From: an uncultured Rhodoplanes sp.
GTDB taxonomy: Bacteria; Pseudomonadota; Alphaproteobacteria; Rhizobiales; Xanthobacteraceae
Direction of reading: 5' to 3'
Assembly: GCA_936924235.1 (NCBI GenBank)
Contig: CAKZHN010000179.1
Coordinates: forward strand, 15,588-79,587
DNA length: 64,000 nucleotides
Shown here one piece after another: positions 2,489 through 30,105 of the stretch. The notes beneath the pieces are model-generated. The model ran no database searches and was not told the DNA's origin. It was given only the letters and a program-made list of their open reading frames with translations. The position numbers and the translations under genes are program-made. Position 1 is the first letter of the stretch. Each line of letters begins with the position of its first letter.

Positions 2489-3748
2489 ATGGCCGCAACA
2501 ATCCCGTTCAAGCCGGAGTTCGCCATGTCGACCGCCGTTTCCACGAAATCCTCGCCCAAGCCCGCCCAGGTGCTGAAAGACGCCGATTTCAACTGGGAGG
2601 ACCCGCTTGGCCTCGAAGGCGACCTCACCGAAGAGGAGCGCATGGTGCGCGACAGCGCCCGCGCCTTCTCCCAGGACAAGCTGATGCCGCGGGTGCGGCT
2701 GTCCTGGCGCGACGAGAAGGTCGACAAGGATCTGCTGCCCGAGATGGGCGCGCTCGGCCTTCTTGGCCCGACCATCCCGGAGGAGTACGGCGGCGCCGGC
2801 CTCGGCTATGTGGCCTATGGCCTGATCGCCCGCGAGATCGAGCGGGTCGATTCCGGATATCGCTCGACCTTGTCGGTGCAGTCGTCGCTGGTGATGCACC
2901 CGATCTATGCCTACGGCACCGAGGCGCAGAAGAAGAAGTATCTGCCCAAGCTCGCCAAGGCCGAGCTGATCGGCTGCTTCGGCCTGACCGAGCCGGACTA
3001 CGGCTCCGATCCGGGCTCGATGGTGACGCGCGCCGAGAAGGTGCCGAACGGCTTCAAGCTCAATGGCGCCAAGATGTGGATCTCGAATGCGCCGATTGCC
3101 GACATCGCGATCGTCTGGGCAAAGCTCGAAGGCAAGATCCGCGGCTTCATCGTCGAGCGCGGCACCAAGGGCTTCTCGACGCCGAAGGTGGAAGGCAAGC
3201 TTTCGCTGCGCACCTCGGTCACCGGCGAGATCGTGCTGGAAGACGCCGTGGTGCCGGAGGAGAACCTGCTGCCGAACGTGTCGGGCCTCGCCGGTCCGTT
3301 CGGCTGCCTCAACATGGCGCGCTACGGCATCGCCTGGGGCGCGATGGGCGCCGCCGAGTTCTGCTGGCACGCGGCACGGCAATACGTGCTCGACCGCAAG
3401 CAGTTCAACCGGCCGCTCGCCGCCAACCAGCTGGTGCAGAAGAAGCTCGCCGACATGCAGACCGAGATCGCGCTCGGCCTGCGCGGTGCGCTCGCGCTCG
3501 GCCGCATGCTCGAAGCCGGCAAGTGCGCGCCGCCGTCGATCTCGCTGATGAAACGCAACAACACCGGCAAGGCGCTCGACATCGCCCGTGTTGCTCGCGA
3601 CATGCACGGCGGCAACGGCATCTCCGATGAGTTCCACGTGATGCGCGTGATGTGCAACCTCGAGACCGTGAACACCTACGAGGGCACCCACGACATCCAC
3701 GCGCTGATCCTCGGCCGTGCCCAGACGGGAATCCAGGCGTTCATGTGA
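2489..3748 (+). CDS. gcdH: Glutaryl-CoA dehydrogenase
   Basis: Acyl-CoA dehydrogenase fold with the GcdH signature ([38 protein letters not shown]). The 708-aa ORF is an N-terminal artefact; the start is taken at the in-frame ATG at 2489. Confidence 0.85.
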
Positions 3749-3758
3749 TCGATCGCGC

Positions 3759-4532
3759 GTGGACGTTCATACGTTTCTTGTTCTGCTCGGCACGGGAGTT
3801 GCGGGCGGCGTGATGGCCGCCCTGGTCGGCGGCGCCTCGGTCATCACGTTTCCGGTGCTGCTCGCGGTGGGCCTGCCGCCGGTCACCGCCACCGCGTCGA
3901 ATCTCATCGCGGTCAGCGGCGGCAATTTTCTCGCCGCGATGACCGACCGCGGCAACCTGCCGCCGTTCAACCGCGCCTTTGTCGGCCTGATCGTCGCCTC
4001 CATCTTCGGCGCCCTGATCGGCGCGGTGCTGCTGCTGGCGACGCCGTCGCGAATGTTCGAGCAGCTCATCCCGGTCCTGCTCGGTCTCGCCACCATCCTG
4101 TTCGGCTTCGCGCGCCAGATCACCCAGTGGATGCGGGCGCGTGCGAAGGCGCGCGGCCAGGATGACTGGAAGATCAGTGTCACCAGCGTGCCGCTCGTGC
4201 TGCCGATCTCGATCTATGGCGGCTATTTCGGCGCAGGCGCCGGCACGTTGCTCCTTGGCGTGCTGACGATAGCGACCGAAGGCAATTACCGCCGCGCCAA
4301 CGTCGCCAAGAACCTGGTGTCGAGCCTCAACACGGTCGCGGCGTCGGTCTGGTTCATCATCCACGGCGCGGTGAGCTGGCCGCAGACCTTGTCGATGATG
4401 CTCGGCTGCCTGGTCGGCGGCTTTTGCGGCGCACACCTGTCGCGCCGCCTGCCGCATGAGTTCATGCGATTCGTGGTGATCGGCGTCGGCGCGCTGCTGA
4501 CCGTGGTCTTCGCCTGGAAATACTGGTTCTAG
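3759..4532 (+). CDS. TauE/SafE family sulfite/anion exporter (DUF81 membrane protein)
   Basis: A multi-TM protein with Gly-rich first helices (FLVLLGTGVAGGVMAALVGGASVITFPVLL, then YGGYFGAGAGTLLL). The GTG start at 3759 precedes TM1. Confidence 0.65.
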   Translation: MDVHTFLVLLGTGVAGGVMAALVGGASVITFPVLLAVGLPPVTATASNLIAVSGGNFLAAMTDRGNLPPFNRAFVGLIVASIFGALIGAVLLLATPSRMFEQLIPVLLGLATILFGFARQITQWMRARAKARGQDDWKISVTSVPLVLPISIYGGYFGAGAGTLLLGVLTIATEGNYRRANVAKNLVSSLNTVAASVWFIIHGAVSWPQTLSMMLGCLVGGFCGAHLSRRLPHEFMRFVVIGVGALLTVVFAWKYWF

Positions 4533-5368
4533 ATGCGCTTGGCCAACTCCACCAGCCGCTTGGTCATGGCGCTGTTCGGGTCGGCCATGGGATCGCAGAT
4601 GGTGAAATGATTGAGGCCCGGGATCGCTTCGTAGCGGGTCTCGACGCCCTTGGCGCGCCACGCGTCGGCAATCGTCTTGCTGTGCCGCAGGAACTCCGAC
4701 GACTCGTCGCCGCCGACCACGGCGTCGAGCACGTGGCCCGTTCCGACCGGCCAGAACAGCGGCGAGATGCGCCTGGCCTCCGCGGCGTCGAGCTTGAACT
4801 CGGCGTTGCCGGAGAGATGCATCAGCACTTCGAGGTCGTAGAGCCCGGAGATCGCGTAGCCGACCGTGATCAGGTCGGCCGGCGCACTCGCATCGAGTTT
4901 CTTCCAATCGGTCGCCATCATGCAGGCCGCGAGATGTCCGCCGGCCGAATGGCCGCTGACCATGATGCGCTGGCCGAGCTTCTTCCAGAGGGCGAGGCAC
5001 GCCGCCTGGGTCTGCTCGATGATTTGGCCGATGCTGACCTGCGGCACGAGATCGTAGCCCGACACCGCGACGGTGACGCCGTGGGCGTTCATGCCGCGCG
5101 CTACCTGGCTGAAGCTCGACGGTTCCAGCGAGCGCCAATAGCCGCCATGGATGAACAGAACCAGCGGGCCTTTGCCGCCGCCGCGCGGCTTGAAGATGTC
5201 GATGGTCTGGCGCGGGGAGGGGCCGTATTTCAGGCCGATCTCGGTGCGGCCCTCTTTCGTGGCTTCGTCCCGATAGGCGGCGCCTTCGCGCACCCAGCGC
5301 TCGAAAATCTGCGGATGCTCGGGCACCCGCGCGCGGTTGTTGTACTCAACCTCGTAGTCGATCGCCAT
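4529..5368 (-). CDS. Alpha/beta hydrolase (esterase / arylformamidase-like)
   Basis: HGGYW oxyanion motif and a GHSAGG nucleophile elbow; start taken at MAIDYEVEY. Confidence 0.7.
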   Translation of the reverse strand: MAIDYEVEYNNRARVPEHPQIFERWVREGAAYRDEATKEGRTEIGLKYGPSPRQTIDIFKPRGGGKGPLVLFIHGGYWRSLEPSSFSQVARGMNAHGVTVAVSGYDLVPQVSIGQIIEQTQAACLALWKKLGQRIMVSGHSAGGHLAACMMATDWKKLDASAPADLITVGYAISGLYDLEVLMHLSGNAEFKLDAAEARRISPLFWPVGTGHVLDAVVGGDESSEFLRHSKTIADAWRAKGVETRYEAIPGLNHFTICDPMADPNSAMTKRLVELAKRI

Positions 5369-5412
5369 GAAACGCTCCCGCCGACAGTAATCGCGGCAGG
5401 AGATTGCGGCAT

Positions 5413-5546
5413 TCGTGTCCCGGGCGCAACGCAGCACAAGCGCAGCGCAGTGATGCGTTGCAGACCCGGGACCGTCTCGAAGGCGGTGTCTGGAACGGCC
5501 CCGGATCTGCGGCGCACCGCTATCGCGCTGCGCCGCGCCCGGGACA
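5413..5546. repeat. REP-like palindromic element, family A (gtgtcccggg...cccgggac)
   Basis: Nested inverted repeats gtgtcccgggcgc...gcagacccgggacc; a close copy sits at 44135-44275. Confidence 0.55.
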
Positions 5547-5554
5547 TGGAGCCG

Positions 5555-6694
5555 CTACCGCTTGATCTGCACTTTGAGCGTCTCGGCGACCGCGCGGTCG
5601 AACGAGTCGGCGGGCTTGGCCGGTGCGTTCTTGCGCTGATCCGCCACGTAGGCGTCGCGCTTCTTGACCAGCTCGGCCATGCGGTCGTTGAGGGTCTTGC
5701 GCTCGGCGGCGTTCTTGTCGATCGCGGCCTGGCGCTGCTCGGGCTTCAGCGTGCGCAGGTTGTCCGGCAGGTCGTCGTCCTTGACGCTGTCGAGCTTCTG
5801 GCGGCCCGACGTGACGTCGGCGACGAGATCGCCGCGGCCGGTCACGGCCTCGTTCATGCGCGAGCCGCTCTTGTTGAGATAGCCCGCCATTTCGGATGCG
5901 ACCGCGCGCGGCGCCGACGCGTACTGGCCGACCTTCTGCTCGACGCTGGAGCGTTGCGCGCGCGGACCGTACGGGATCACGGTGCCGTTGATGTGGCCCT
6001 GCAACTCGATGATCTCGGTGTCCCACGGCGTCTCGATCACCAGGATCTGGCCACCGTCCTGCGGGATCGGGATGTAGCGGCCGTCGCCGCGCTGGGCGAT
6101 CTCGCGCCACACCCGCTCGGTGTCGCGCGCGCCGCCGGCCTGCACGGCGTTGACCACGATGCCGCGATCACGCGCCATGCGGACCACGTCGGGGTACTTG
6201 GTGTCCTGCTTGTAGTCCATGTGCGGCGGCGCGTCGCCGACCAGGAACATGATGCGGCAGATCTCGGAGCCTTGCGTCCAGCTGAGCTTCGTGACGCCGA
6301 TCTCCATCGCCTCGTTGACGCTTTCCGGCCAGTCGCCGCCGCCTTGCGCCTGAAGCAGCAGCAGCTTGGCATAGAGATCCTGGATATCGGTGGTGAGGTC
6401 GAACGTCTTGGTGACGTACTCGTCGCCGATGTCGCGATAGGCGACGAGGCCCATGCGGATTTCGGCGTCGGGGTTGGTGTCGGCGATCGCGGTGGCGATC
6501 GACCAGATCTTGCGCTTGGCGCCTTCGATCAACGGTCCCATCGAGCCGGTGGTGTCGAGCACGAAGGCGACCTCGACCACGGGCTTGCCGAGGCGCCTGA
6601 TATCCGGCTCCGCCGGATCGGCGAAGGCGGCAGTGAAGGTGAGAGCGGCAGCGACCGACGCGGGCGCAAGCGCCCGGGCAATAGTGGACAACAT
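5555..6694 (-). CDS. Secreted von Willebrand factor A (vWA) domain protein
   Basis: Signal peptide, a MIDAS-like DTTGSM motif, and a basic coiled C-terminus. Confidence 0.75.
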   Translation of the reverse strand: MLSTIARALAPASVAAALTFTAAFADPAEPDIRRLGKPVVEVAFVLDTTGSMGPLIEGAKRKIWSIATAIADTNPDAEIRMGLVAYRDIGDEYVTKTFDLTTDIQDLYAKLLLLQAQGGGDWPESVNEAMEIGVTKLSWTQGSEICRIMFLVGDAPPHMDYKQDTKYPDVVRMARDRGIVVNAVQAGGARDTERVWREIAQRGDGRYIPIPQDGGQILVIETPWDTEIIELQGHINGTVIPYGPRAQRSSVEQKVGQYASAPRAVASEMAGYLNKSGSRMNEAVTGRGDLVADVTSGRQKLDSVKDDDLPDNLRTLKPEQRQAAIDKNAAERKTLNDRMAELVKKRDAYVADQRKNAPAKPADSFDRAVAETLKVQIKR

Positions 6695-6897
6695 GGATGT
6701 TTCCCTCCGGATAGCCTTCCGACGCCGGAAAGGATTCCTGCCCTTCGCGACGCGCCGTGGTCCGGATTGCGGCCGGGCATCGGCGGAATGTGGGCGGATT
6801 GCGACCCGGGGATGAACGGCCGGACAGGCGCTGCGGAATTGCTGGGCCGATGTTGTTCCGATTGCGGCGCGGCGGGCAAAGTGGCACTGAGTCCGGC

Positions 6898-7998
6898 ATG
6901 AAGGTCAACGGCACACACACCCGCACCATCTGGCTCGAAGCCGACGGCTGGTCGGTCGGCATCATCGACCAGACCATGCTGCCGCATCGGTACACGACGC
7001 TTCGGCTGACCACGCTCGCCGAGGCCGCGCACGCCATCAAGTCGATGCAGGTGCGCGGCGCCCCATTAATCGGTGCCGCGGCCGCTTACGGCATGTGCCT
7101 CGCGCTGCGCGCCGACGCCTCCGACGAGCACATCGAGAAGGCTTACGCGGTGCTGCATGCGACGCGGCCGACCGCGATCAATCTGAAATGGGCGCTCGAT
7201 GAGATGGTGGCCGCGGTGCGCAACCAGCCGCGCGAGGCTCGCGTCGCTGCTGCCTACCGCCGCGCTGCCGAGATCGCCGACGAGGACGTGGCAATCTGCC
7301 AGGCCATGGGCCGCCACGGTCTGAAGCTGATCGAGGAGATCGCCGCGCGCAAAAAAGGCGAGCCGGTCAACGTGCTGACCCATTGCAACGCCGGCTGGCT
7401 CGCGACCGTGGACTATGGCACCGCGACTGCGCCGATCTATGCGGCCCACGACAGCGGCATCCCGATCCATGTCTGGGTCGACGAGACGCGGCCGCGCAAC
7501 CAGGGCGCTTCGCTCACCGCGTGGGAGCTCGGCCATCACGGCGTCAAGCACACCGTGATCGCCGACAACACCGGCGGCCATCTGATGCAGCACGGCATGG
7601 TCGATCTGGCGATCGTCGGCACCGACCGCGTTACCGCGCAGGGCGACGTCTGCAACAAGATCGGCACGTATCTCAAAGCGCTGGCCGCCAAAGACAACGG
7701 CGTACCGTTCTATGTGGCGCTGCCATCGCCGACCATCGACTTCGCGGTGTCCGACGGCGTCGCCGAGATTCCGATCGAGCAGCGCGCGGGCGAAGAGCAG
7801 TCCACCATGACCGGCCGCACCGCCGACGGCCGGATCGAGACCGTGCAGGTGGTGCCGGACGGCTCGCCGGTCGCGAACTATGCGTTCGACGTGACGCCGG
7901 CGCGGCTGGTGACCGGATTGATCACGGAGCGCGGCGTGCTGAGGGCATCGCGCGAGGGCTTGCGGGCGGCGTTTCCGGAGCGTGCGGGAGAGAAGTGA
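6898..7998 (+). CDS. mtnA: S-methyl-5-thioribose-1-phosphate isomerase
   Basis: [13 protein letters not shown]...IIDQTMLPH...[14 protein letters not shown] matches the MtnA/eIF2B-like family; start taken at the internal ATG at 6898. Confidence 0.85.
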
Positions 7999-9233
7999 TG
8001 CGGTTCGGCACAGTTGCGGCGCTGGTGTTCGCGAGCTGGGTCCTGGCGGCGCCCGCGCTTGCGGACGAGCAGGTCAAGCCGATCCTCGACAGCGCCGAGA
8101 AGCTCAAGCCCGACGCGATCAAGGTCTGGGAGCGCCTGATCAGCGTCGACTCCGGCACCGGCGATGCCGAAGGCGTCAATGCGGTCGGCGCCGTCGCGGT
8201 CGAGGAGCTGACCAGGCTCGGCGCTTCGATCGAGCTGGTGCCGAACACACCTGCGGCAGGCGGCGATAACATCGTCGCGAGCCTTACGGGCACGGGCCAG
8301 GGCAAGGTGCTGCTGATGGCGCACATGGACACGGTGTTCGCCAAGGGTGCCGTGGCGCAGCGGCCGTTCCGCATCGAAGGCGGCCGCGCCTATGGGCCGG
8401 GGGTGTCGGACGACAAGGCCGGGATCGTCATCGGGCTCACCACGCTGAAGATCCTCAACGAGCTGAAGTTCAAGGACTACGCGCGGATCACGCTGTTTCT
8501 CAACACCAACGAGGAAACCGGTTCGCGCGGCTCGCGCGCGCTGATCGAGAAGCTGGCGAAAGAGCACGACGTCACGCTCAATCTCGAAGGCGGCCGCACC
8601 GGTGACGGCATCACGGTTTGGCGCAAGGGCTCCGGCACCATCAGGGTCGAGGTGAAGGGCCGGTCGTCGCACGCGGGCGGATCGCCGGAGCTCGGCCGCA
8701 ATGCGGTGATGGAGCTGATGCATCAGGTGCTGCAGCTCAGCAGGCTTGGCGACGAGACCAAGGGCACCACGGTCAACTTCACGGTGGTGAAGGGCGGCGA
8801 CCGTAAGAACGTCATTCCGGACTTCGCCACGGCCGACGCCGACGTGCGCGCCGTGGTGTCGGAGGAATTTGACCGCGTCGAACGCGACGTCGCCGCCACC
8901 ATCAAGAACAAGCTCATTCCCGACACCGAGGTGACGGCGACGCTGACGCGGACCTTTCCGGTGATGCCGCAGAACGCACAGATCGACGCGCTCGCCGTCA
9001 TGGCGCAGCGCATCTATGGCGAGCTTGGCAAAAGGCTGACGCTGGGGGGCTCCGGCGGCGCCGCCGATTCGAGCCTCGCCGCCGGCGTGTTCAAGCCGAC
9101 GCTCGACGGCCTGAGCATGATCGGCTCCGGCGCCCACACCGAACGCGAGTATGCCGAGGTCGACAGCATGGTGCCGCGGCTCTATCTGTTGACCCGGATG
9201 GTGATGGAGCTTGGCCGCAAGCCAAGAAATTGA
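7998..9233 (+). CDS. Glutamate carboxypeptidase, M20 family (carboxypeptidase G2-like), secreted
   Basis: Signal peptide; SVDSGTGDAEGV, LLMAHMDTVF and GPGVSDDKAG match CPG2 almost motif for motif. The start ATG overlaps the mtnA stop (GTGATG). Confidence 0.8.
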   Translation: MRFGTVAALVFASWVLAAPALADEQVKPILDSAEKLKPDAIKVWERLISVDSGTGDAEGVNAVGAVAVEELTRLGASIELVPNTPAAGGDNIVASLTGTGQGKVLLMAHMDTVFAKGAVAQRPFRIEGGRAYGPGVSDDKAGIVIGLTTLKILNELKFKDYARITLFLNTNEETGSRGSRALIEKLAKEHDVTLNLEGGRTGDGITVWRKGSGTIRVEVKGRSSHAGGSPELGRNAVMELMHQVLQLSRLGDETKGTTVNFTVVKGGDRKNVIPDFATADADVRAVVSEEFDRVERDVAATIKNKLIPDTEVTATLTRTFPVMPQNAQIDALAVMAQRIYGELGKRLTLGGSGGAADSSLAAGVFKPTLDGLSMIGSGAHTEREYAEVDSMVPRLYLLTRMVMELGRKPRN

Positions 9234-9237
9234 AGCC

Positions 9238-9726
9238 ATGAGTCTGCCGCTCGGGAAATTCGCCGAGGTTCCGGTCGACGGCCGGCAGTCGCAGACCGCG
9301 CTGAAGATCGCGCGCGGCGCCGCGCGGCTGCTGCACGCCCACGGCTATTGCGTGGTCAGCGAGCTGCCGCTTGCTTCGGGCCGGCGGGCGGATCTCGTGG
9401 CGCTCGGCCGCGACGGCGAAATCTGGATCGTCGAGATCAAGTCCTCGGTCGCGGACTTCCGCGCCGACCAGAAATGGATGGACTACCGGCTGCATTGCGA
9501 CCGGCTGTTCTTCGCCACCACGGTCGAGGTGCCGTGCGAAATCTTTCCGCCGGACACCGGGCTGATCGTGGCCGACGCGTTCGGCGCCCAGATCGTCTGC
9601 GAGGCGCCCGAGCACCGGCTGCATGCGGCGACTAGAAAGAGCATGACGCTCAGCATCGCGCGGGCCGCGGCGCTCCGTTTGCAGTCATTGGCCGACCCGG
9701 CGGGGCCGTATCAGGGCGAATTCTGA
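9238..9726 (+). CDS. MmcB-family (PD-(D/E)XK-like) DNA repair protein
   Basis: A ~160-aa protein with a [27 protein letters not shown] nuclease-like core. Confidence 0.55.
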
Positions 9727-9886
9727 CTGGTGCAATGGCCGAGTCTCGCGGCTCCCGGTCTGCAAAATCGCAACGACGTTTTCGGAACCGATGTGGTTAA
9801 CGGTTCGATTACCGGAATCTGAAAGATTTGCGCCCGTCCAAGCTGCATTTTCAGCCCCGTACGCGGGAAACGGACGCGAGCGATCC

Positions 9887-11689
9887 ATGCCACCAGCGCA
9901 ATCCGAATTGCCTTCGTCGCTCAAGCAGCGCGGCGCGTTCCGCGGCTGGCACAGCATCGCCTGGCGCGTCATCCTGCCGGTGCCGGTCACGCTCATCATC
10001 GTGGTCGGCGTGATCTGGGCGACCATGCCGCGGCTGATGGAGAGCGCGGCGGTGCACGACGCGTTCCTGTCCAATCAGCAGGTGGCGGCGCAGTTCAAGG
10101 TCATCCGCGGCTACTATTCCGAGAACGTCGTCAACAAGGTGCTGGCGACCGGCGCCGTCAAGGCGTCGCACGATCACCGTGGCCACGACGGCGTCATTCC
10201 GATTCCGGCGACGCTGATGCACGATCTCAGTGCGTTGTTGGCATCGACCGACACGTCGATGTCGCTCTACAGCAGATATCCGTTCCCCGGCCGCAAGGAC
10301 CGCAAGCTCGACGATTTCCAGAACGAGGCCTGGGATTTCCTCGTCGCCAACCCGAAGGGCGTGTTCTCGCGTGAGGCCGTGTTGAACGGCCGGCATGTGG
10401 TGCGCACCGGCGTGGCCGACACCATGTCGGCGCAGTCCTGCGTCAACTGCCACAACTCGGACCCCGAATCGCCGAAGCGGGACTGGAAACTCGGCGACGT
10501 CCGCGGCGTGCTCGAAATCTCAACCGTGATCGAGACGCAGATCGCCCACGGCAATCAGGTCAGCCACCTGATCGTGCTCTGCGCGATCATTGCCGGCATC
10601 ATCCTGTCGGCGCTAACCTACTGGGCGATCCGCGGCGTCACCTCGCCGCTCCGCAAGCTGGTTGTCGCGATGGACGGTCTCGCTTCCGGCAGCTTCGACG
10701 TGGCGCTGCCCGGGCTGCACCGCAAGGACGAGGTCGGCGCGATGGCGAACGCCGTCGAGCAGTTCAAGGTCAAGGCCATCGAACACGCGCGGAGCCGCGC
10801 GGACGACGAGGCGGCGCAGCGGCGGGCCGCCGCCGAAGAGCGCCGCAGCTCGATGCGGCGCCTCGCCGACAGCTTCGAGGCCGCGATCGGCAACATCGTG
10901 AACTTCGTATCGCTGGAGTCGAAAGGCCTCGAGGCCGCGGCCAGCACCATGAAAGGCACCGCGGATTCGACGAAGCAATTTGCCGACGTCGTGGCGCGCG
11001 CCTCGAGCGATGCGTCCACGAACGTCAATTCGGCCGCCGAGGCCGCCGGTGATCTCGCCAATTCGGTGTCGGACATCAGCCGCAAGGTGCGCGAGTCGAG
11101 CGACATCGCGGGCGACGCCGTGCGTCAGGCTGAGAAGACCGACGCCCGCATCACGGCGTTGTCTGAAGCCGCGACCCGCGTCGGCAACGTCGTCAAGCTG
11201 ATCACCGACATCGCCGAGCAGACCAACCTGCTGGCGCTGAACGCCACCATCGAGGCGGCGCGCGCCGGCGAGGCCGGCCGCGGCTTCGCGGTGGTGGCCG
11301 CCGAGGTCAAGACGCTCGCGACGCAGACCGCCAAGGCGACCGAGGAGGTCGCCGTGCAGATCACCGAGATGCAGACCGCGACCGCGGATTCGTTTACGGC
11401 GATCAAGGAGATCAGCTCGACCATCATCCGCATCTCCGAAATCGCCAGCTCGATTGCAGCGGCGATCGAGCAGCAGGGCGCCACCACGTCGCAGATCGCC
11501 AACGGCGTCGAGAGCGCGGCGCGCAGCGCCGAGCACGCCGCGGCCAACATCGGCGACGTCAACCGGGCCGCAAACGAGAGCGGCACTGCGGCGGAGCGCG
11601 TGTTCGCCTCCGCGCACCTCCTGGCCAAGGAGGGCGGCAAGCTCAAGCAGGAAGTCGACAAGTTCCTGGCGACCGTCCGCGCGGCTTAG
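9887..11689 (+). CDS. Methyl-accepting chemotaxis protein with a periplasmic CXXCH haem-c-type sensor domain
   Basis: TM1, a ~190-aa periplasmic domain containing CVNCH (10439-10453), TM2, HAMP, and an MA domain with highly conserved [28 protein letters not shown]. Confidence 0.85.
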
Positions 11690-11705
11690 CTTCAACTTAT
11701 CGATA

Positions 11706-11847
11706 CGTCATTCCGGGGCGCGCCCGCCAGCGCGTTTACGCGCGTCTTTGACGCGCTACGGGCGCGAACCCGGAATCCAGACATGGAAAGACTGTCTCCG
11801 GGACTGGATTGCGGATCGCACGCTGTCGCGTGCGTCCGGAATGACGG
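11706..11847. repeat. REP-like palindromic element, family B (gtcattccgg...cgtttacgcgcgtct...ccggaatgac)
   Basis: A long imperfect palindrome; a second copy at 14063-14198 shares the core cgtttacgcgcgtctNNgacgcgctaNgggcgcga. Confidence 0.55.
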
Positions 11848-11929
11848 GCAGCGACAGCCGTTCCGCGCTTGCCTATACTCGCGCGCGTCTGACGTCTATC
11901 GAACGATAAAAGATGCTGGGAGGTCGCCG

Positions 11930-13030
11930 ATGAGGCTCGTGTTTGCTGCGTTCGTTTCGCTCGTCGCCAATGTGGCATTGGCGCAGGAAGCGGTGCCGAC
12001 CATCGCGTATGAGTCGGTGCCCAATCTTCTGAAATTGCCGGACGACATGCATCTCGGCGAGGCCGCGGGCGTCGCGGTCAATTCCAAGGGCCACATCTTC
12101 GTCTACGCCCGCGGCGGCTCGAGCGCGGGGCCTGCCTACGGTAACACGGCGTCACAGCTCCTGGAGTTCAGCCCGAGCGGCAAGTTCATCCGCGAGATCG
12201 GCAAGAACCTCTACGCCTGGGCGTTCGCGCACACCGTGCGCATCGACAAGGACGACAACATCTGGGCCACCGACAAGGGCTCGGACATGATCATCAAGTT
12301 CAATCCGCAGGGCCGCGTGGTGATGGTGTTCGGCCGGAAGTCGGAGGCCTCCGACACCGAGGCGAAGCCGCATGAGCGCAACCTCGAAAAGCCGCTGCCG
12401 CACCAGGACGGCCGCTTCCGCCAACCGACCGATGTGGCCTGGGGACCGGACGGCACGATCTACATCTCGGACGGCTACGTGAATTCGCGCGTCGCCAAGA
12501 TCAGCAAGGACGGCGACTGGATCAAGTCCTGGGGCCAGAGGGGCAAGGGCCAGGGCGAGTTCAACCTGGTGCACAGCATCGCGACCGACGCGAAAGGCAG
12601 CGTCTATGTTGCCGACCGCAACAACCGCCGCATCCAGGTGTTCGATGGCGACGGCAATTTCCAGCGCGAGATCAAGATCAACGTGCCGTTCGATGAGAAC
12701 GCCAAGCCCGCGATCGGCGACAAGCCAAACCTCACGAACTATCTGCAGAGCGGCGGCAGCATGACGCCGGGCGCGCCCTGGGCGATCTGCATCACGCCGG
12801 GACCGAACCAGGTGCTGTACAGCGCCGACTCGTATCCGGGCCGCATCTACAAGCTGTCGCTCGACGGCAAGGTGCTGGGCGTGCTCGGCTCGTCGGGCAA
12901 GCAGCTCAAGCAGTTCGGCTGGATCCACGAGATCGCGTGTCCGTCGGAGAACACGCTGCTCGTCGCCGAGATCCTGAACTGGCGGGTGCAGAAGCTGATC
13001 CTTCATCCGGAGAAGACGGCGAGTCGATGA
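11930..13030 (+). CDS. Secreted NHL-repeat six-bladed beta-propeller protein
   Basis: Signal peptide; repeated YVADRNNRRIQVF-type NHL blades; GGGAGG RBS upstream of the ATG at 11930. Confidence 0.75.
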   Translation: MRLVFAAFVSLVANVALAQEAVPTIAYESVPNLLKLPDDMHLGEAAGVAVNSKGHIFVYARGGSSAGPAYGNTASQLLEFSPSGKFIREIGKNLYAWAFAHTVRIDKDDNIWATDKGSDMIIKFNPQGRVVMVFGRKSEASDTEAKPHERNLEKPLPHQDGRFRQPTDVAWGPDGTIYISDGYVNSRVAKISKDGDWIKSWGQRGKGQGEFNLVHSIATDAKGSVYVADRNNRRIQVFDGDGNFQREIKINVPFDENAKPAIGDKPNLTNYLQSGGSMTPGAPWAICITPGPNQVLYSADSYPGRIYKLSLDGKVLGVLGSSGKQLKQFGWIHEIACPSENTLLVAEILNWRVQKLILHPEKTASR

Positions 13031-14052
13031 TGACAGTGCGCGTGTCACGAGCTGCAAGCCTGCTGGGTGCGGCGTTCGCGGCGGCATTGGCCGCGGCGCC
13101 CGCGAAGGCGCAGTCGCCCGATCTGTCCGGCAAGACCGTGACGCTGCTCATCGGCTTCGGCACCGGTGGCGGCTATGACCTCTGGGGCCGCACCGTGGCG
13201 CGGCACATCGGCAAGCACCTGCCGGGCAAGCCCACGGTGGTGCCGCAGAACATGCCGGGCGCCGGCTCGTATGTGGCGGCAAGTCATATCTACAATGCGG
13301 CGCCCAAGGACGGCACGGTGTTCGGCATCATCGCCCGCGATGCCGCATTGGGTCCGCTCAGCAACGCGCCGGGCGCGCGCTTCGACGCGACGAAGATGTC
13401 GTGGCTCGGCAGCCCCACGCGCGAGCACAACGCCTGCATCGCCAACGCCTCGGCCAAGGTGAAAACCGTCAACGACCTGCGCGACAAGGAACTCATTCTG
13501 GGTGACACCGGGCCGGGCACCGGCACGCGGTCCTATCCCAAGGTGCTGGGCGACGTGTTCGGCTACAAGTTCAAGATCGTCTCGGGCTTCCGCTCCTCGT
13601 CGGACGTGTTCCTGGCCATGGAGCGCGGCGAGGTCGAAGGCATTTGCGAAAGCCTCGACAGCATCAACCAGCGCAAGCCCGACTGGATTCCGAAAAAGGT
13701 CGTCAACGTGCTGCTGCAGGCCGGCGCCGAGTCGCCTCCGGAGCTGAAGGGCGTGCCCAATGTGCTGACGCTCGCCCGCAACGACGAGGAGAAGCAGCTT
13801 CTCGAGTTTCTCTACGCCGGGCAGGACATCGGCCGGCCGTTCGTAGCGCCGCCCGATCTGCCCTCGGAGCGGCTGAAGATGCTGCGCGACGCGTTTGCGG
13901 AGACGATGAAGGATCCGGAGTTTGCCGCCGACGTGAAGCGCAGCAAGCTCGATCTCGAGCCGGTGGATGGCGAGCAGCTGGCGGCGCTGATCGCCAAGAT
14001 CTACGCGACGCCGAAGCCGATCATCGAGCGCGTCAGCAACCTGATCAAATGA
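13027..14052 (+). CDS. TctC/Bug-family-like periplasmic solute-binding protein (orphan)
   Basis: Signal peptide; GFGTGGGYDLWGRTVARHIGKHLPGKPTVVPQNMPGAGSYVAASHI...APKDGTVFGI fits the TctC consensus. No tctAB lies adjacent; ATGA overlap with the preceding gene. Confidence 0.65.
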   Translation: MMTVRVSRAASLLGAAFAAALAAAPAKAQSPDLSGKTVTLLIGFGTGGGYDLWGRTVARHIGKHLPGKPTVVPQNMPGAGSYVAASHIYNAAPKDGTVFGIIARDAALGPLSNAPGARFDATKMSWLGSPTREHNACIANASAKVKTVNDLRDKELILGDTGPGTGTRSYPKVLGDVFGYKFKIVSGFRSSSDVFLAMERGEVEGICESLDSINQRKPDWIPKKVVNVLLQAGAESPPELKGVPNVLTLARNDEEKQLLEFLYAGQDIGRPFVAPPDLPSERLKMLRDAFAETMKDPEFAADVKRSKLDLEPVDGEQLAALIAKIYATPKPIIERVSNLIK

Positions 14053-19546: not shown

Positions 19547-20302
19547 ATGCCGCTGCGTGCCCTGTTCTACCGCCGTCCGAGCGAACCGCAGACCTTCGAG
19601 GTCGAGTTCGACCGGGCGAGCTTTGCGGTGCGGGTGCGGCGCCACCGCCAGGCGCGGCGTTACACCCTGCGCATCCAGGCCGCCACGCGTGAAGTGATCC
19701 TGACCATGCCGCCGCGCGGCAACCTGCGCGAGGCCAAGGAATTCGCCCAGAAGCACGGCGGCTGGATCGCGGCACGGATGCATCGCTTGCCGCAGGCCGT
19801 GCCGTTCGCCGACGGCACCGTCGTGCCGCTGCGCGGCGTCGAGCATCGCATCGTGCATAAGCCGGGCCTGCGCGGCACGGTGTGGACCGAGGCGCCGGAC
19901 CGCGGCATGCCGCTGTTGTGCGTCGCGGGCGATGCGCCCCATGTCGAACGCCGGGTGAACGATTTCCTGCGCCGCGAGGCGGCGCGCGATCTCGACACGG
20001 CGAGCCGCCGCGCCGCCGAAGAGTTCGGCGTTTCGGTCAAGCGCATCTCGGTGCGCGATCAGTCGAGCCGCTGGGGTTCGTGCTCCACGACGGGCGTGCT
20101 GTCCTACTCCTGGCGGCTGATCCTCGCGCCACCGTTTGTGCTGAACTATCTCGCCGTGCACGAGGTCGCGCATATGATCGAGATGAATCACTCGGCGCGG
20201 TTCTGGCGGCTGGTGAAGCGGGTCTGCGCCGATTCCGAGCGCGCCAAGACCTGGCTCGACGTGCATGGCAGCGATCTGCACCGCTACGGCCTGCCGGGCT
20301 GA
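19547..20302 (+). CDS. M48/YgjP-family zinc metallohydrolase (DUF45)
   Basis: A HEXXH motif (HEVAHMIEMNH) in the C-terminal half. Confidence 0.7.
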   Translation: MPLRALFYRRPSEPQTFEVEFDRASFAVRVRRHRQARRYTLRIQAATREVILTMPPRGNLREAKEFAQKHGGWIAARMHRLPQAVPFADGTVVPLRGVEHRIVHKPGLRGTVWTEAPDRGMPLLCVAGDAPHVERRVNDFLRREAARDLDTASRRAAEEFGVSVKRISVRDQSSRWGSCSTTGVLSYSWRLILAPPFVLNYLAVHEVAHMIEMNHSARFWRLVKRVCADSERAKTWLDVHGSDLHRYGLPG

Positions 20303-27110: not shown

Positions 27111-27418
27111 AGCGAAGCGCGCGCCGCCTGTCACGGCGGGACGCACATTGGAGGGAGAACGCTTTTGCGTTGGGCCACGGACGGGGAAGCAAATTTCCTT
27201 TTTGGCTTCCGGCGCGTCATAATTATTCTCTTTGACGATCAATGACTTAGACAATATAACCGAAACAGCGCCGATTTGAGCGAGCAGCTTGCGGGCGCTT
27301 AATAAATGCAGCTAAAGCGGTCGGGGCCCGCCCCGTCGCATGAAGCTGACGGGCGGGTAATTTGTTTGCCCGCCTCCATCAAACCGCGGCGAAAGCCGCA
27401 AACAGCATGGAGGTCTTC

Positions 27419-28390
27419 ATGACCAGTCTCTCTCGTCGCGTCCTTCTGGCCTCGGCTTTCGCCGCGGCCCTGTTCCCGGCTGTGGCCTTCGGCGCCGACA
27501 AGCCCAAGACCATCAACATCGACTGGGCGACCTACAATCCGGTGTCGATGCTCTTGAAGGACAAGGGCCTTCTCGAAAAGGAATTCGCCAAGGACGGCAT
27601 CGGTATCCGCTGGGTGCAGACGCTCGGCTCCAACAAGGCGCTCGAGTTCCTCAACGCCGGCTCGATCGATTTCGGCTCGACGGCGGGCTCGGCGGCGCTC
27701 GTCGCCAAGATCAACGGCAATCCGATCAAGTCGATCTACGTCTATTCGCGGCCGGAATGGACCGCGCTGGTGACCCGCAAGGACACCGCGATCAACAAGA
27801 TCGAGGATCTCAAGGGCAAGCGCGTCGCCGTGACCCGAGGCACCGACCCGCACATCTTCCTGGTGCGCGCGCTGCAGCAGGCGAAGCTGACCGAGAAGGA
27901 CATCACGCCGGTGCTGCTGCAGCATCCGGACGGCAAGACCGCGCTCATCCGCGGCGATGTCGACGCCTGGGCCGGTCTCGACCCGATGATGGCGCAGGCC
28001 GAGATCGAGGACGGCGCGCGGCTGTTCTATCGCAACAAGGAGGCCAACACCTGGGGCATCCTCAATGTGCGCGAGGAGTTCCTCAAGGACCATCCGGATC
28101 TGGTGAAGCGCGTGCTCGCGGTCTACGAGGACGCCCGCAAGCAGTCGCTCGCCAACTATGCCGAGCTGAAGCACGTGTTCATCGCCGTCACCAAGCTGCC
28201 CGACGCCGTGGTCGACAAGCAGCTCAAGGAGCGCACCGAGCTCACCCACAGCAAGATCGGCGCGCCGCAGCGTGAGTCCATTCTGGCCGCCGGCATCGCG
28301 TTGCAGCAGGCCGGCGTCATCAAATCCGATGTCGACGTGAAGGCCACGGTCGACGCGCTGATCGACGACTCGGTGCCGCTGACCAACTAG
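27419..28390 (+). CDS. Aliphatic sulfonate / nitrate-type ABC transporter substrate-binding protein (SsuA/NMT1-like)
   Basis: Signal peptide; NMT1-family fold; GGAGG RBS 4 nt upstream of the ATG. Confidence 0.75.
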   Translation: MTSLSRRVLLASAFAAALFPAVAFGADKPKTINIDWATYNPVSMLLKDKGLLEKEFAKDGIGIRWVQTLGSNKALEFLNAGSIDFGSTAGSAALVAKINGNPIKSIYVYSRPEWTALVTRKDTAINKIEDLKGKRVAVTRGTDPHIFLVRALQQAKLTEKDITPVLLQHPDGKTALIRGDVDAWAGLDPMMAQAEIEDGARLFYRNKEANTWGILNVREEFLKDHPDLVKRVLAVYEDARKQSLANYAELKHVFIAVTKLPDAVVDKQLKERTELTHSKIGAPQRESILAAGIALQQAGVIKSDVDVKATVDALIDDSVPLTN

Positions 28391-28471
28391 AGCGAACCAT
28401 CGCCTCGCCCCGGCCGTTGAGGTCAGGGGCGAGGCGTCGTTCGTTACCCTTGCGTCAGAGTGGGTGTTGGT

Positions 28472-29314
28472 ATGTCCTTTGTCCCCATGACCATCGCGGC
28501 CGGACGGGTGACCCCGGAGCAGCGCAAGGCCGGGCGCTCCGGCCTTGCGCGCTACTGGAAGCCCGCGCTCGGTCTGGTGTTGCCGGTGCTCGCCGCGGCG
28601 GGCTGGGAGCTGGCGGTGCGGATGGGGCTGTCCAACGGCCGCCTGCTGCCGCCGCCTTCCGTGGTGTTCGCGACCTTCTGGGAGCTCGCGCAGACCGGTG
28701 AATTGCAGCGGCACACACTGGCGACGACGCTGCGCGTCGCGGCGGGCTTCGGCTTCGGCGTACTGGCCGGCACACTGGCCGGCGCAGTCACCGGCTATTC
28801 GCCGCTGCTGCGGCGCCTGCTCGATCCGACCGTGCAGGGGCTTCGCGCCATCCCGTCGCTCGCCTGGGTGCCGCTGTTCGTGCTCTGGTTCGGCATCTTC
28901 GAGAGCTCGAAGGTCATCCTGATCGCGGTCGGCGTGTTCTTTCCGGTCTATCTCGGCGTCATGGGCGCGATCGCATCGGTCGATCGCAAGCTCGTCGAAG
29001 TCGGCCGTGCGTTCCGCCTGTCCGACACCGCGATGGTCCGGCGCATCTTATTGCCTGCGGTGCTGCCCGCTTACGTGATCGCGCTGCGCACGGGTCTGGG
29101 GCTCGGCTGGATGTTCGTGGTCGCGGCCGAACTGCTCGGCGCCTCCGAAGGCCTCGGCTATCTGCTGATTGATGGGCAGCAACTCGGCAAGCCGGCGGAG
29201 ATCGTCGCTGCGATCGTCGCGTTTGCGGTGATCGGCAAGCTTGCCGACTGGATGATCGCGGCGGCGGCGGCGCCTTTCCTGCGCTGGGAAGACGTCGTCG
29301 AGCGGAGGCGCTGA
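28472..29314 (+). CDS. ABC transporter permease (SsuC/TauC-like)
   Basis: BPD_transp_1 permease fold with an EAA-like loop. Confidence 0.8.
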   Translation: MSFVPMTIAAGRVTPEQRKAGRSGLARYWKPALGLVLPVLAAAGWELAVRMGLSNGRLLPPPSVVFATFWELAQTGELQRHTLATTLRVAAGFGFGVLAGTLAGAVTGYSPLLRRLLDPTVQGLRAIPSLAWVPLFVLWFGIFESSKVILIAVGVFFPVYLGVMGAIASVDRKLVEVGRAFRLSDTAMVRRILLPAVLPAYVIALRTGLGLGWMFVVAAELLGASEGLGYLLIDGQQLGKPAEIVAAIVAFAVIGKLADWMIAAAAAPFLRWEDVVERRR

Positions 29315-30105
29315 TGCTCAGTCTCGAACGCGTCGGAAAGACCTATGCCAACGGCGTGCGCGCGCTCGACGGCGTGTCGCTCGAGGTCGAGCCAGGCGAG
29401 ATCGTCGCCGTGATCGGCGGCTCGGGCTGCGGCAAGTCCACGCTGCTGCGCGCGATCTCGGGCCTCGACACGCCGACGCAGGGCCAGGTCGTGCTCGACG
29501 GCGCGCCGGTGACCAAGCCGCACGAGAAGATTGGCATCATCTTCCAGGAGCCGCGGCTCCTGCCGTGGCTCTCGGTCGCCGACAATGTCGGCTTCGGCAT
29601 CGAGGACCAGCCGAAGCGCGAGCGCGGCGAACGCGTCGGTCGGGCGCTGGCGCGCGTCGGCCTGTCCGACAAGGCCACGGTCTGGCCGCGGGAGCTCTCC
29701 GGCGGCCAGGCGCAGCGCGTCGCCATCGCTCGCGCGCTGGTGCCGCGCCCCGAGGTGCTGCTGCTCGACGAGCCGTTCTCGGCGCTCGATGCGTTCACCC
29801 GCACCGATCTCCAGGAGCACCTGCTCGCGTTGTGGGCTGATGCCAGGCCGACGCTCATTCACGTCACGCACGACGTCGAAGAGGCGATCGTGCTGGCGGA
29901 TCGCGTGGTGGTGATGCGGCCGCGGCCGGGCCGCATCGCCGACGAGATCGTGATCGACCTCCCGCGGCCGCGCGATCGCCAGTCGGCGGCGTTCGATTTT
30001 GCCAAGCGGCGCGTGCTCGCTGCGCTGGATCGCTCGCTCGACCGCACGGTCAGCGTCGACGAGCGCGAGACCAAGGCCGAGACCGGCCAGGCAATGTGGT
30101 GGTAG
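29314..30105 (+). CDS. ABC transporter ATP-binding protein (SsuB/TauB-like)
   Basis: Walker A GGSGCGKST, LSGGQ and Walker B LLLDEPF. Confidence 0.85.
   Translation: MLSLERVGKTYANGVRALDGVSLEVEPGEIVAVIGGSGCGKSTLLRAISGLDTPTQGQVVLDGAPVTKPHEKIGIIFQEPRLLPWLSVADNVGFGIEDQPKRERGERVGRALARVGLSDKATVWPRELSGGQAQRVAIARALVPRPEVLLLDEPFSALDAFTRTDLQEHLLALWADARPTLIHVTHDVEEAIVLADRVVVMRPRPGRIADEIVIDLPRPRDRQSAAFDFAKRRVLAALDRSLDRTVSVDERETKAETGQAMWW

Follow-up and report, generated by a model that had tools for sequence, protein, structure and literature searches.

A carboxypeptidase G2-like M20 peptidase gene overlapping mtnA in a Rhodoplanes-related bacterium: probable compact packing after a lineage-specific insertion

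MtnA, the S-methyl-5-thioribose-1-phosphate isomerase, belongs to methionine salvage and methylthioadenosine (MTA) recycling (PDB 1T9K, 2YVK), and carboxypeptidase G2 (CPG2, or glucarpidase; PDB 1CG2, 6XJ5) belongs to peptidase family M20. In bacterial operons, translational coupling of adjacent genes through ATGA or TGATG junctions is a known phenomenon. MmcB is a PD-(D/E)XK DNA-repair endonuclease that protects Caulobacter crescentus from mitomycin C, is SOS-regulated in that organism and has no methionine-salvage connection (PMC9578287). Relatives of all three proteins are encoded side by side in contig CAKZHN010000179.1 of an uncultured Rhodoplanes sp., of which a stretch of 64,000 nucleotides (nt), here called the window, was analyzed. 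In it, the stop codon of mtnA overlaps the start codon of a CPG2-like M20 peptidase gene, which is followed by an mmcB-like gene. A preliminary description of this DNA considered two explanations for the overlap: the genes may be linked metabolically, which would be unexpected, or be packed together incidentally in an operon. The evidence assembled below favors packing over a link, the adjacency being confined to the closest sub-clade (12 loci), and makes it probable that the M20 gene was inserted, in one lineage only, into an older mtnA-mmcB operon and is packed there incidentally.

The mtnA-M20 junction and the encoded proteins

The features that make up the junction and the genes around it are the following.

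6898..7998, forward strand: mtnA, S-methyl-5-thioribose-1-phosphate isomerase, 366 amino acids (TIGR00512, NF004326, PF01008, PDB 1t9k)
7986..7992, forward strand: Shine-Dalgarno-like GGGAGAG for the M20 gene, within the 3' end of mtnA (sequence reading)
7996..8000, forward strand: TGATG stop/start overlap (sequence reading; of 12 M20-bearing loci, 11 have an overlap of 1 or 4 nt)
7998..8063, forward strand: predicted Sec signal peptide of the M20 protein, cleavage before DEQ (judged by eye from the translation)
7998..9233, forward strand: M20 metallopeptidase of the glutamate carboxypeptidase (CPG2-like) subfamily, 411 amino acids (NF004788, PF01546, PF07687, CPG2 structures)
9238..9726, forward strand: mmcB-like PD-(D/E)XK nuclease gene, 162 amino acids (PF06319, 231 bits, whole length)

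At the junction, the TGA of mtnA (7996-7998) and the ATG of the M20 gene (7998-8000) share a single A, giving a 1-nt overlap that reads ...GGGAGAGAAGTGATGCGG... (window positions 7980-8005, GCGTGCGGGAGAGAAGTGATGCGGTT) and has the GTGATG arrangement given in the preliminary description. The GGGAGAG motif lies 5-7 nt upstream of the ATG, the GGAG core ending 7 nt before it, and GGAGG or GGGAG motifs occupy the equivalent position in 11 homologous junctions. An alternative in-frame GTG at 7995 would extend the overlap to 4 nt, so that the two genes overlap with either start; the CTGATG junctions of homologous loci L009, L087 and L090 permit the ATG start only. A stop/start overlap is thus combined with a ribosome-binding site (RBS) inside the upstream gene, as expected of a coupled pair, and from this geometry translational coupling of mtnA and the M20 gene can reasonably be inferred. 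With known coupled operons the pair shares the 1-nt overlap, the Shine-Dalgarno sequence inside the upstream gene, zero intergenic space and a geometry conserved in relatives. Unlike them, it joins genes that are neither subunits nor pathway partners and has no detectable RBS-sequestering structure: the RNA fold of 7930-8050 gives z=+0.8 against shuffled controls, with no extra stability and no RBS-masking structure beyond those controls.

The identities previously given to the two genes were borne out by NCBIfam, Pfam and PDB searches. The mtnA frame is open from 6757, and its best start, the ATG at 6898, gives the 366-residue product that is also called on public metagenome contigs whose M20 protein is identical and whose flanking genes are the same. 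This product scores 419.6 bits over its full length against the equivalog model TIGR00512 (cut-off 279), 486.5 bits against NF004326 (cut-off 271) and 214.5 bits against PF01008, and matches the structure 1t9k over its full length (E=1.6e-75). The models of the eIF2B and ribose-1,5-bisphosphate isomerase paralogues remain far under their cut-offs (TIGR00511, 141.8 versus 314 bits), which favors the MtnA identity, and isomerase activity on methylthioribose 1-phosphate is predicted. The mtnA gene of the window stands alone, with no mtnP/K, mtnB, aldolase or RuBisCO-like protein gene within ~4 kb on either side.

The M20 protein scores 514.4 bits against NF004788, "glutamate carboxypeptidase" (cut-off 349), and contains a PF01546 catalytic domain (95.3 bits) and a PF07687 dimerisation domain (81.9 bits). 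This is the two-domain architecture of CPG2, its best solved relative, which it matches over the full length (1cg2/6xj5, E ~2e-77, 38% identity). Residues H109, D138, E172, E173, E197 and H380 align with CPG2 H112, D141, E175, E176, E200 and H385, so that each of the five zinc ligands is matched, as is the catalytic Glu. Because these ligand residues match those of CPG2 and all six positions are invariant in an alignment of 12 homologues, the protein is very probably an active di-zinc hydrolase. An identity of only 38% does not allow its substrate (folate, another N-acyl-glutamate or a peptide) to be deduced, and the protein falls in a clade distinct from CPG2, with uncharacterised Pseudomonas/Burkholderiales proteins of ~60% identity as nearest relatives. 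Secretion, also part of the preliminary description, is predicted from an N-terminus that by eye has typical n-h-c regions and ends where the CPG2 leader ends in the alignment (...LA/QKRDN); the homologues have differing but equivalent hydrophobic N-termini with A-x-A endings. Compared with its neighbors, the M20 protein has diverged faster (67-86% identity between the window and L007-L012, L087 and L090, versus 82-96% for MtnA and 80-94% for MmcB), which fits relaxed or shifting constraint on an exported enzyme.

Downstream, the M20 stop TGA (9231-9233) is followed 4 nt further on by the ATG of the mmcB-like gene, so that the overlap and this 4-nt gap make mtnA, the M20 gene and mmcB one compact same-strand string. 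The mmcB-like product matches PF06319 over its whole length, and its function here is predicted from that family. Since the MmcB repair nuclease is unrelated to methionine salvage, tight packing at this locus already joins unrelated functions.

Distribution of the gene pair among relatives

Conservation was surveyed from both genes. For the M20 gene, GTDB was scanned at one genome per species with an M20 alignment and the best 80 loci were retained. The gene mtnA stands immediately upstream in 6 of these 80, all of them in alphaproteobacterial/Xanthobacteraceae-type metagenome-assembled genomes (MAGs; L007-L012, M20 67-78% identical). In the 74 other species genomes, where M20 is 57-63% identical, no mtnA lies within 6 kb of the orthologue; these hosts are a Methylobacteriaceae MAG, Collimonas, Janthinobacterium, Duganella, Cupriavidus, Ralstonia and ~60 Pseudomonas species. 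Recurrent neighbors of the gene in Pseudomonas are a MASE2-GGDEF cyclase, AstA, an amino-acid permease and FGase, while a phosphoenolpyruvate mutase-like protein and a flavin monooxygenase are also encoded beside it in Pseudomonas/Burkholderiales. No clue to sulfur or methionine metabolism was found among these Pseudomonas/Burkholderiales neighbors.

For mtnA, a metagenome scan with an MtnA alignment yielded a best 80 loci of 75-88% identity. Together with other loci and after removal of duplicates, 75 had enough downstream sequence to be classified (MtnA 75-96% identical). Relatives in the surveys are mostly metagenomic, named Bradyrhizobium and Rhodopseudomonas genomes lying outside the sample. 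The genes found after mtnA are as follows.

mmcB directly: 56 of 75 loci
M20, then mmcB: 12 of 75 loci
something else: 7 of 75 loci

The M20 adjacency is absent from 63 of the 75 classifiable loci, absence being scored at the mtnA locus only, so that copies elsewhere in those genomes are possible. A Xanthobacteraceae MAG with an MtnA 86% identical to that of the window (L088), for instance, has the order hydrolase on the reverse strand, mtnA, mmcB, with few bases between genes and no M20. The preliminary description had named absence of the adjacency from close relatives as the outcome that would refute its claim, and the surveys largely returned that outcome. In M20-free loci the gap between mtnA and mmcB has a median of 20 nt, and a 1- or 4-nt overlap is possible in 16 of 57 by a first-start heuristic. 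The slot taken by the M20 gene can hold other genes as well, as in locus L095, where a gene for a TctC-family periplasmic binding protein (3237-4193, forward strand) lies between mtnA and mmcB; insertion of genes for exported proteins is apparently tolerated at the junction. Adjacency of mtnA and M20 across divergent lineages, the mark of a functional operon, was not found: the 6 of 80 M20 genomes and the 12 of 75 mtnA loci that have it amount to about one sub-clade.

Neighbor-joining (distance) trees without support values were built for both proteins. In the MtnA tree the M20-bearing loci form essentially one sub-clade, which includes Rhodoplanes sp. Z2-YC6860. In the M20 tree all mtnA-linked sequences, including L010, are monophyletic, with an unlinked Methylobacteriaceae sequence as sister, followed by Burkholderiales and Pseudomonas. 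Within the M20-bearing group, 11 of 12 loci have a 1-nt (TGATG) or 4-nt (ATGA) overlap after a GGAG-type motif, despite diverged surrounding nucleotides, and in 8 of 10 homologous loci a 4-nt overlap also joins the M20 stop to the mmcB start. Locus L010 keeps the gene order with gaps of 48 and 44 nt and no overlaps. Because the overlaps are kept within the clade, co-transcription of mtnA, M20 and mmcB is likely and coupled translation plausible.

Rhodoplanes sp. Z2-YC6860 (CP007440.1) is the closest named relative (M20 86% and MtnA 96% identical) and has the same order of hydrolase, VWA, mtnA, M20, mmcB and chemoreceptor genes, with a 1-nt overlap. The earlier placement among Bradyrhizobiaceae was approximate, several related contigs being labeled Xanthobacteraceae; by sequence, the organism is an environmental relative of Rhodoplanes sp. 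Z2-YC6860 and not Bradyrhizobium proper. Six soil or environmental metagenome contigs (L001-L006; ENA ERZ27263042, ERZ1023214, ERZ27263043 and others) encode an identical M20 protein and have the gene order of window positions 3717-11689, with identical or near-identical MtnA and MmcB.

Incidental packing and its alternatives

Stop/start overlaps are common in the window itself. A scan for stops of coding frames with high GC content at third codon positions (GC3) that are overlapped by the start of another high-GC3 frame found ~8 such junctions in the 64 kb, among them those between an NHL-repeat gene and a TctC-like gene at 13028 and between an ABC permease and its ATPase at 29312. The mtnA/M20 geometry alone is therefore not above genome background. 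Overlapping junctions of this kind are the usual packing of adjacent genes in this high-GC genome, functionally related or not. Since the same geometry occurs between mtnA and mmcB in M20-free relatives, it is apparently a property of the locus or genome and not of one functional partnership.

Altogether, incidental compact packing after a lineage-specific M20 insertion into an older mtnA-mmcB operon is the probable explanation. The older and widespread order would be the hydrolase gene on the reverse strand followed by mtnA and mmcB, into which a single M20 gene would have been inserted between mtnA and mmcB in the lineage of the window organism and Rhodoplanes sp. Z2-YC6860, to be inherited vertically with its neighbors thereafter. 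The string would most likely be transcribed from the region upstream of mtnA, and ribosomes finishing mtnA may re-initiate, or assist initiation, on the M20 gene through the overlap and its own Shine-Dalgarno sequence; the pairing of mtnA with M20 would carry no metabolic meaning. Several points weigh against this account. The MtnA tree has two exceptions, as L111, with mmcB right after mtnA, falls inside the M20-bearing clade and L010, with M20 present, falls outside it. The direction of the event, one insertion as opposed to ancestral presence with many losses, is inferred from the neighbor-joining trees. Moreover, retention of the overlap in 11 of 12 loci shows what reads as selection, or inertia, for co-expression, and a functional pair would show the same; a link through an unrecognised M20 substrate is conceivable.

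Independent expression, in which a promoter inside the upstream coding sequence would drive M20, mmcB or both and the overlap would be a by-product of compaction without coupling, is unlikely. It would account for the well-spaced Shine-Dalgarno sequence that M20 has of its own, for junction RNA lacking structure above shuffled sequences that would tie initiation to upstream translation, for the gapped gene order of L010 and for the SOS regulation of mmcB in Caulobacter (PMC9578287). Against it, most loci conserve the overlap at each of the two junctions, and a search of mtnA and the M20 gene for sigma-70-like sites found none, although such a search has little power in a high-GC alphaproteobacterium. 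More generally, the consensus scan, weak for the same reason, found no relevant promoter or terminator in 5400-12000, including between mtnA and mmcB, and no sigma-70 consensus match in 6695-6897. In contrast to the SOS-regulated Caulobacter gene, the mmcB of the window has no alphaproteobacterial LexA box (GTTCN7GTTC) nearby, the sole window match at 19946 being within chance expectation.

A real metabolic link is improbable. It would have the periplasmic M20 enzyme free an amino acid that feeds the methionine/S-adenosylmethionine (SAM) cycle served by MtnA, the overlap fixing their co-production; candidates are glutamate, a folate-derived product, or methionine split from a gamma-glutamyl or N-acyl conjugate. 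CPG2 acts on folates, and the methyl group used in methionine synthesis comes from folate, a connection that is conceptual only. Adjacency and overlap persist in 11 of 12 loci over M20 divergence down to 67% identity, and within the clade the tree of MtnA largely agrees with that of M20, both as the link would predict. The link is nevertheless unsupported, since the compartments differ, the adjacency belongs to one lineage, each gene mostly occurs without the other and the slot takes other genes. The predicted signal peptide would place M20 in a compartment other than that of cytoplasmic MtnA; M20 orthologues lie away from mtnA in 74 of 80 genomes, and 56 of 75 mtnA loci of relatives have no M20 at mtnA; an unrelated TctC gene fills the same slot in L095; and the third packed gene encodes a DNA-repair nuclease. 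Nor is there a SAM or other riboswitch upstream of mtnA, where no leader reached the Rfam gathering thresholds and none appeared at E<=1 in 6600-7000, though a SAM-II riboswitch occurs elsewhere in the window. No paper on the pair came up in a literature search combining mtnA with carboxypeptidase G2. Equally improbable is that M20 was recruited in a soil lineage to scavenge a sulfur/methionine-containing or folate-derived conjugate, thereby extending methionine/SAM recycling, or that the mtnA-mmcB pair reflects an unrecognised link between methylthio-sugars or SAM and the nuclease.

Mis-assignment of the start, with M20 beginning at the in-frame GTG at 8025 and no overlap, is highly improbable. 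A protein begun there would lack the charged n-region and some of the hydrophobic core of its signal peptide, all homologues carry an ATG at the overlap after a GGAG-type motif, and the genes called independently on public contigs begin with the overlapping ATG.

If incidental packing is the correct explanation, the locus is a routine case of a known phenomenon and the finding itself matters little: in a high-GC alphaproteobacterial genome, functional partnership should not be read from a stop/start overlap. The compact string would join a cytoplasmic salvage isomerase, a secreted peptidase and a DNA-repair nuclease, the middle gene being a lineage-specific insertion, and for annotation this means that "methionine salvage" context should not be transferred to this M20 subfamily. 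What remains mildly interesting is the family-wide mtnA-mmcB pairing, for which there is no known rationale.

Neighboring genes and other observations

The pairing that is widely conserved at the locus is that of mtnA with a following mmcB (PF06319; L088 and loci among L094-L169), often overlapping or near-abutting; across this family, mmcB is mtnA's conserved partner. No functional explanation is known for the company that an isomerase of methylthioribose 1-phosphate keeps with a crosslink-repair nuclease. Where MtnA is most divergent among the loci recovered (~75-76% identity), the gene downstream of mtnA encodes a class II aldolase-short-chain dehydrogenase (SDR) fusion, or TctB-TctA transporter genes take that place (L155, 5125-7179, forward strand; L157, 5225-7468; L160, 5172-7507). 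The aldolase-SDR fusion of L155 could plausibly be the partner that cleaves methylthioribulose 1-phosphate, which recalls the dihydroxyacetone-phosphate (DHAP) shunt.

Around the mtnA-M20-mmcB string, the window holds the following features.

ends 4532, forward strand: TauE-family membrane protein (local gene order)
4529..5368, reverse strand: alpha/beta hydrolase (Abhydrolase_3 / BD-FAE), 279 amino acids, conserved divergent neighbor of mtnA (Pfam)
5555..6694, reverse strand: VWA-domain protein gene, divergent from mtnA (PF25106/PF00092; no NCBIfam match)
6695..6897, no strand: divergent intergenic region between the VWA gene (reverse) and mtnA (forward), presumed promoter region of the mtnA-M20-mmcB string
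ends 11689, forward strand: chemoreceptor (local gene order)
11936-13030, forward strand: NHL-repeat beta-propeller gene, next after the chemoreceptor
13027-14052, forward strand: TctC-like gene, next after the NHL gene

In most of the related loci, the Abhydrolase_3 gene likewise precedes mtnA and is divergent from it. The VWA gene is a variable insertion independent of M20, as it occurs without M20 in L107, L128 and L131, and M20 occurs without it in L008, L092 and L093. The NHL/TctC-like junction (13027-13031) is an ATGATG-type overlap within a tightly packed pair without established functional link.

Further along the window, a SAM-II riboswitch (RF00521; 27258-27336, forward strand; 49.8 bits, gathering threshold 36) lies directly 5' of an ABC transporter operon on the same strand, which encodes an NMT1/SsuA-like binding protein (27362-28390), a permease (28460-29314) and an ATPase (29314-30105), the permease stop and ATPase start overlapping by 1 nt (29312). 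The SAM riboswitch thus precedes an importer of the sulfonate/nitrate/taurine type and not a methionine biosynthesis gene, and the operon may encode a methionine or sulfur-compound uptake system.

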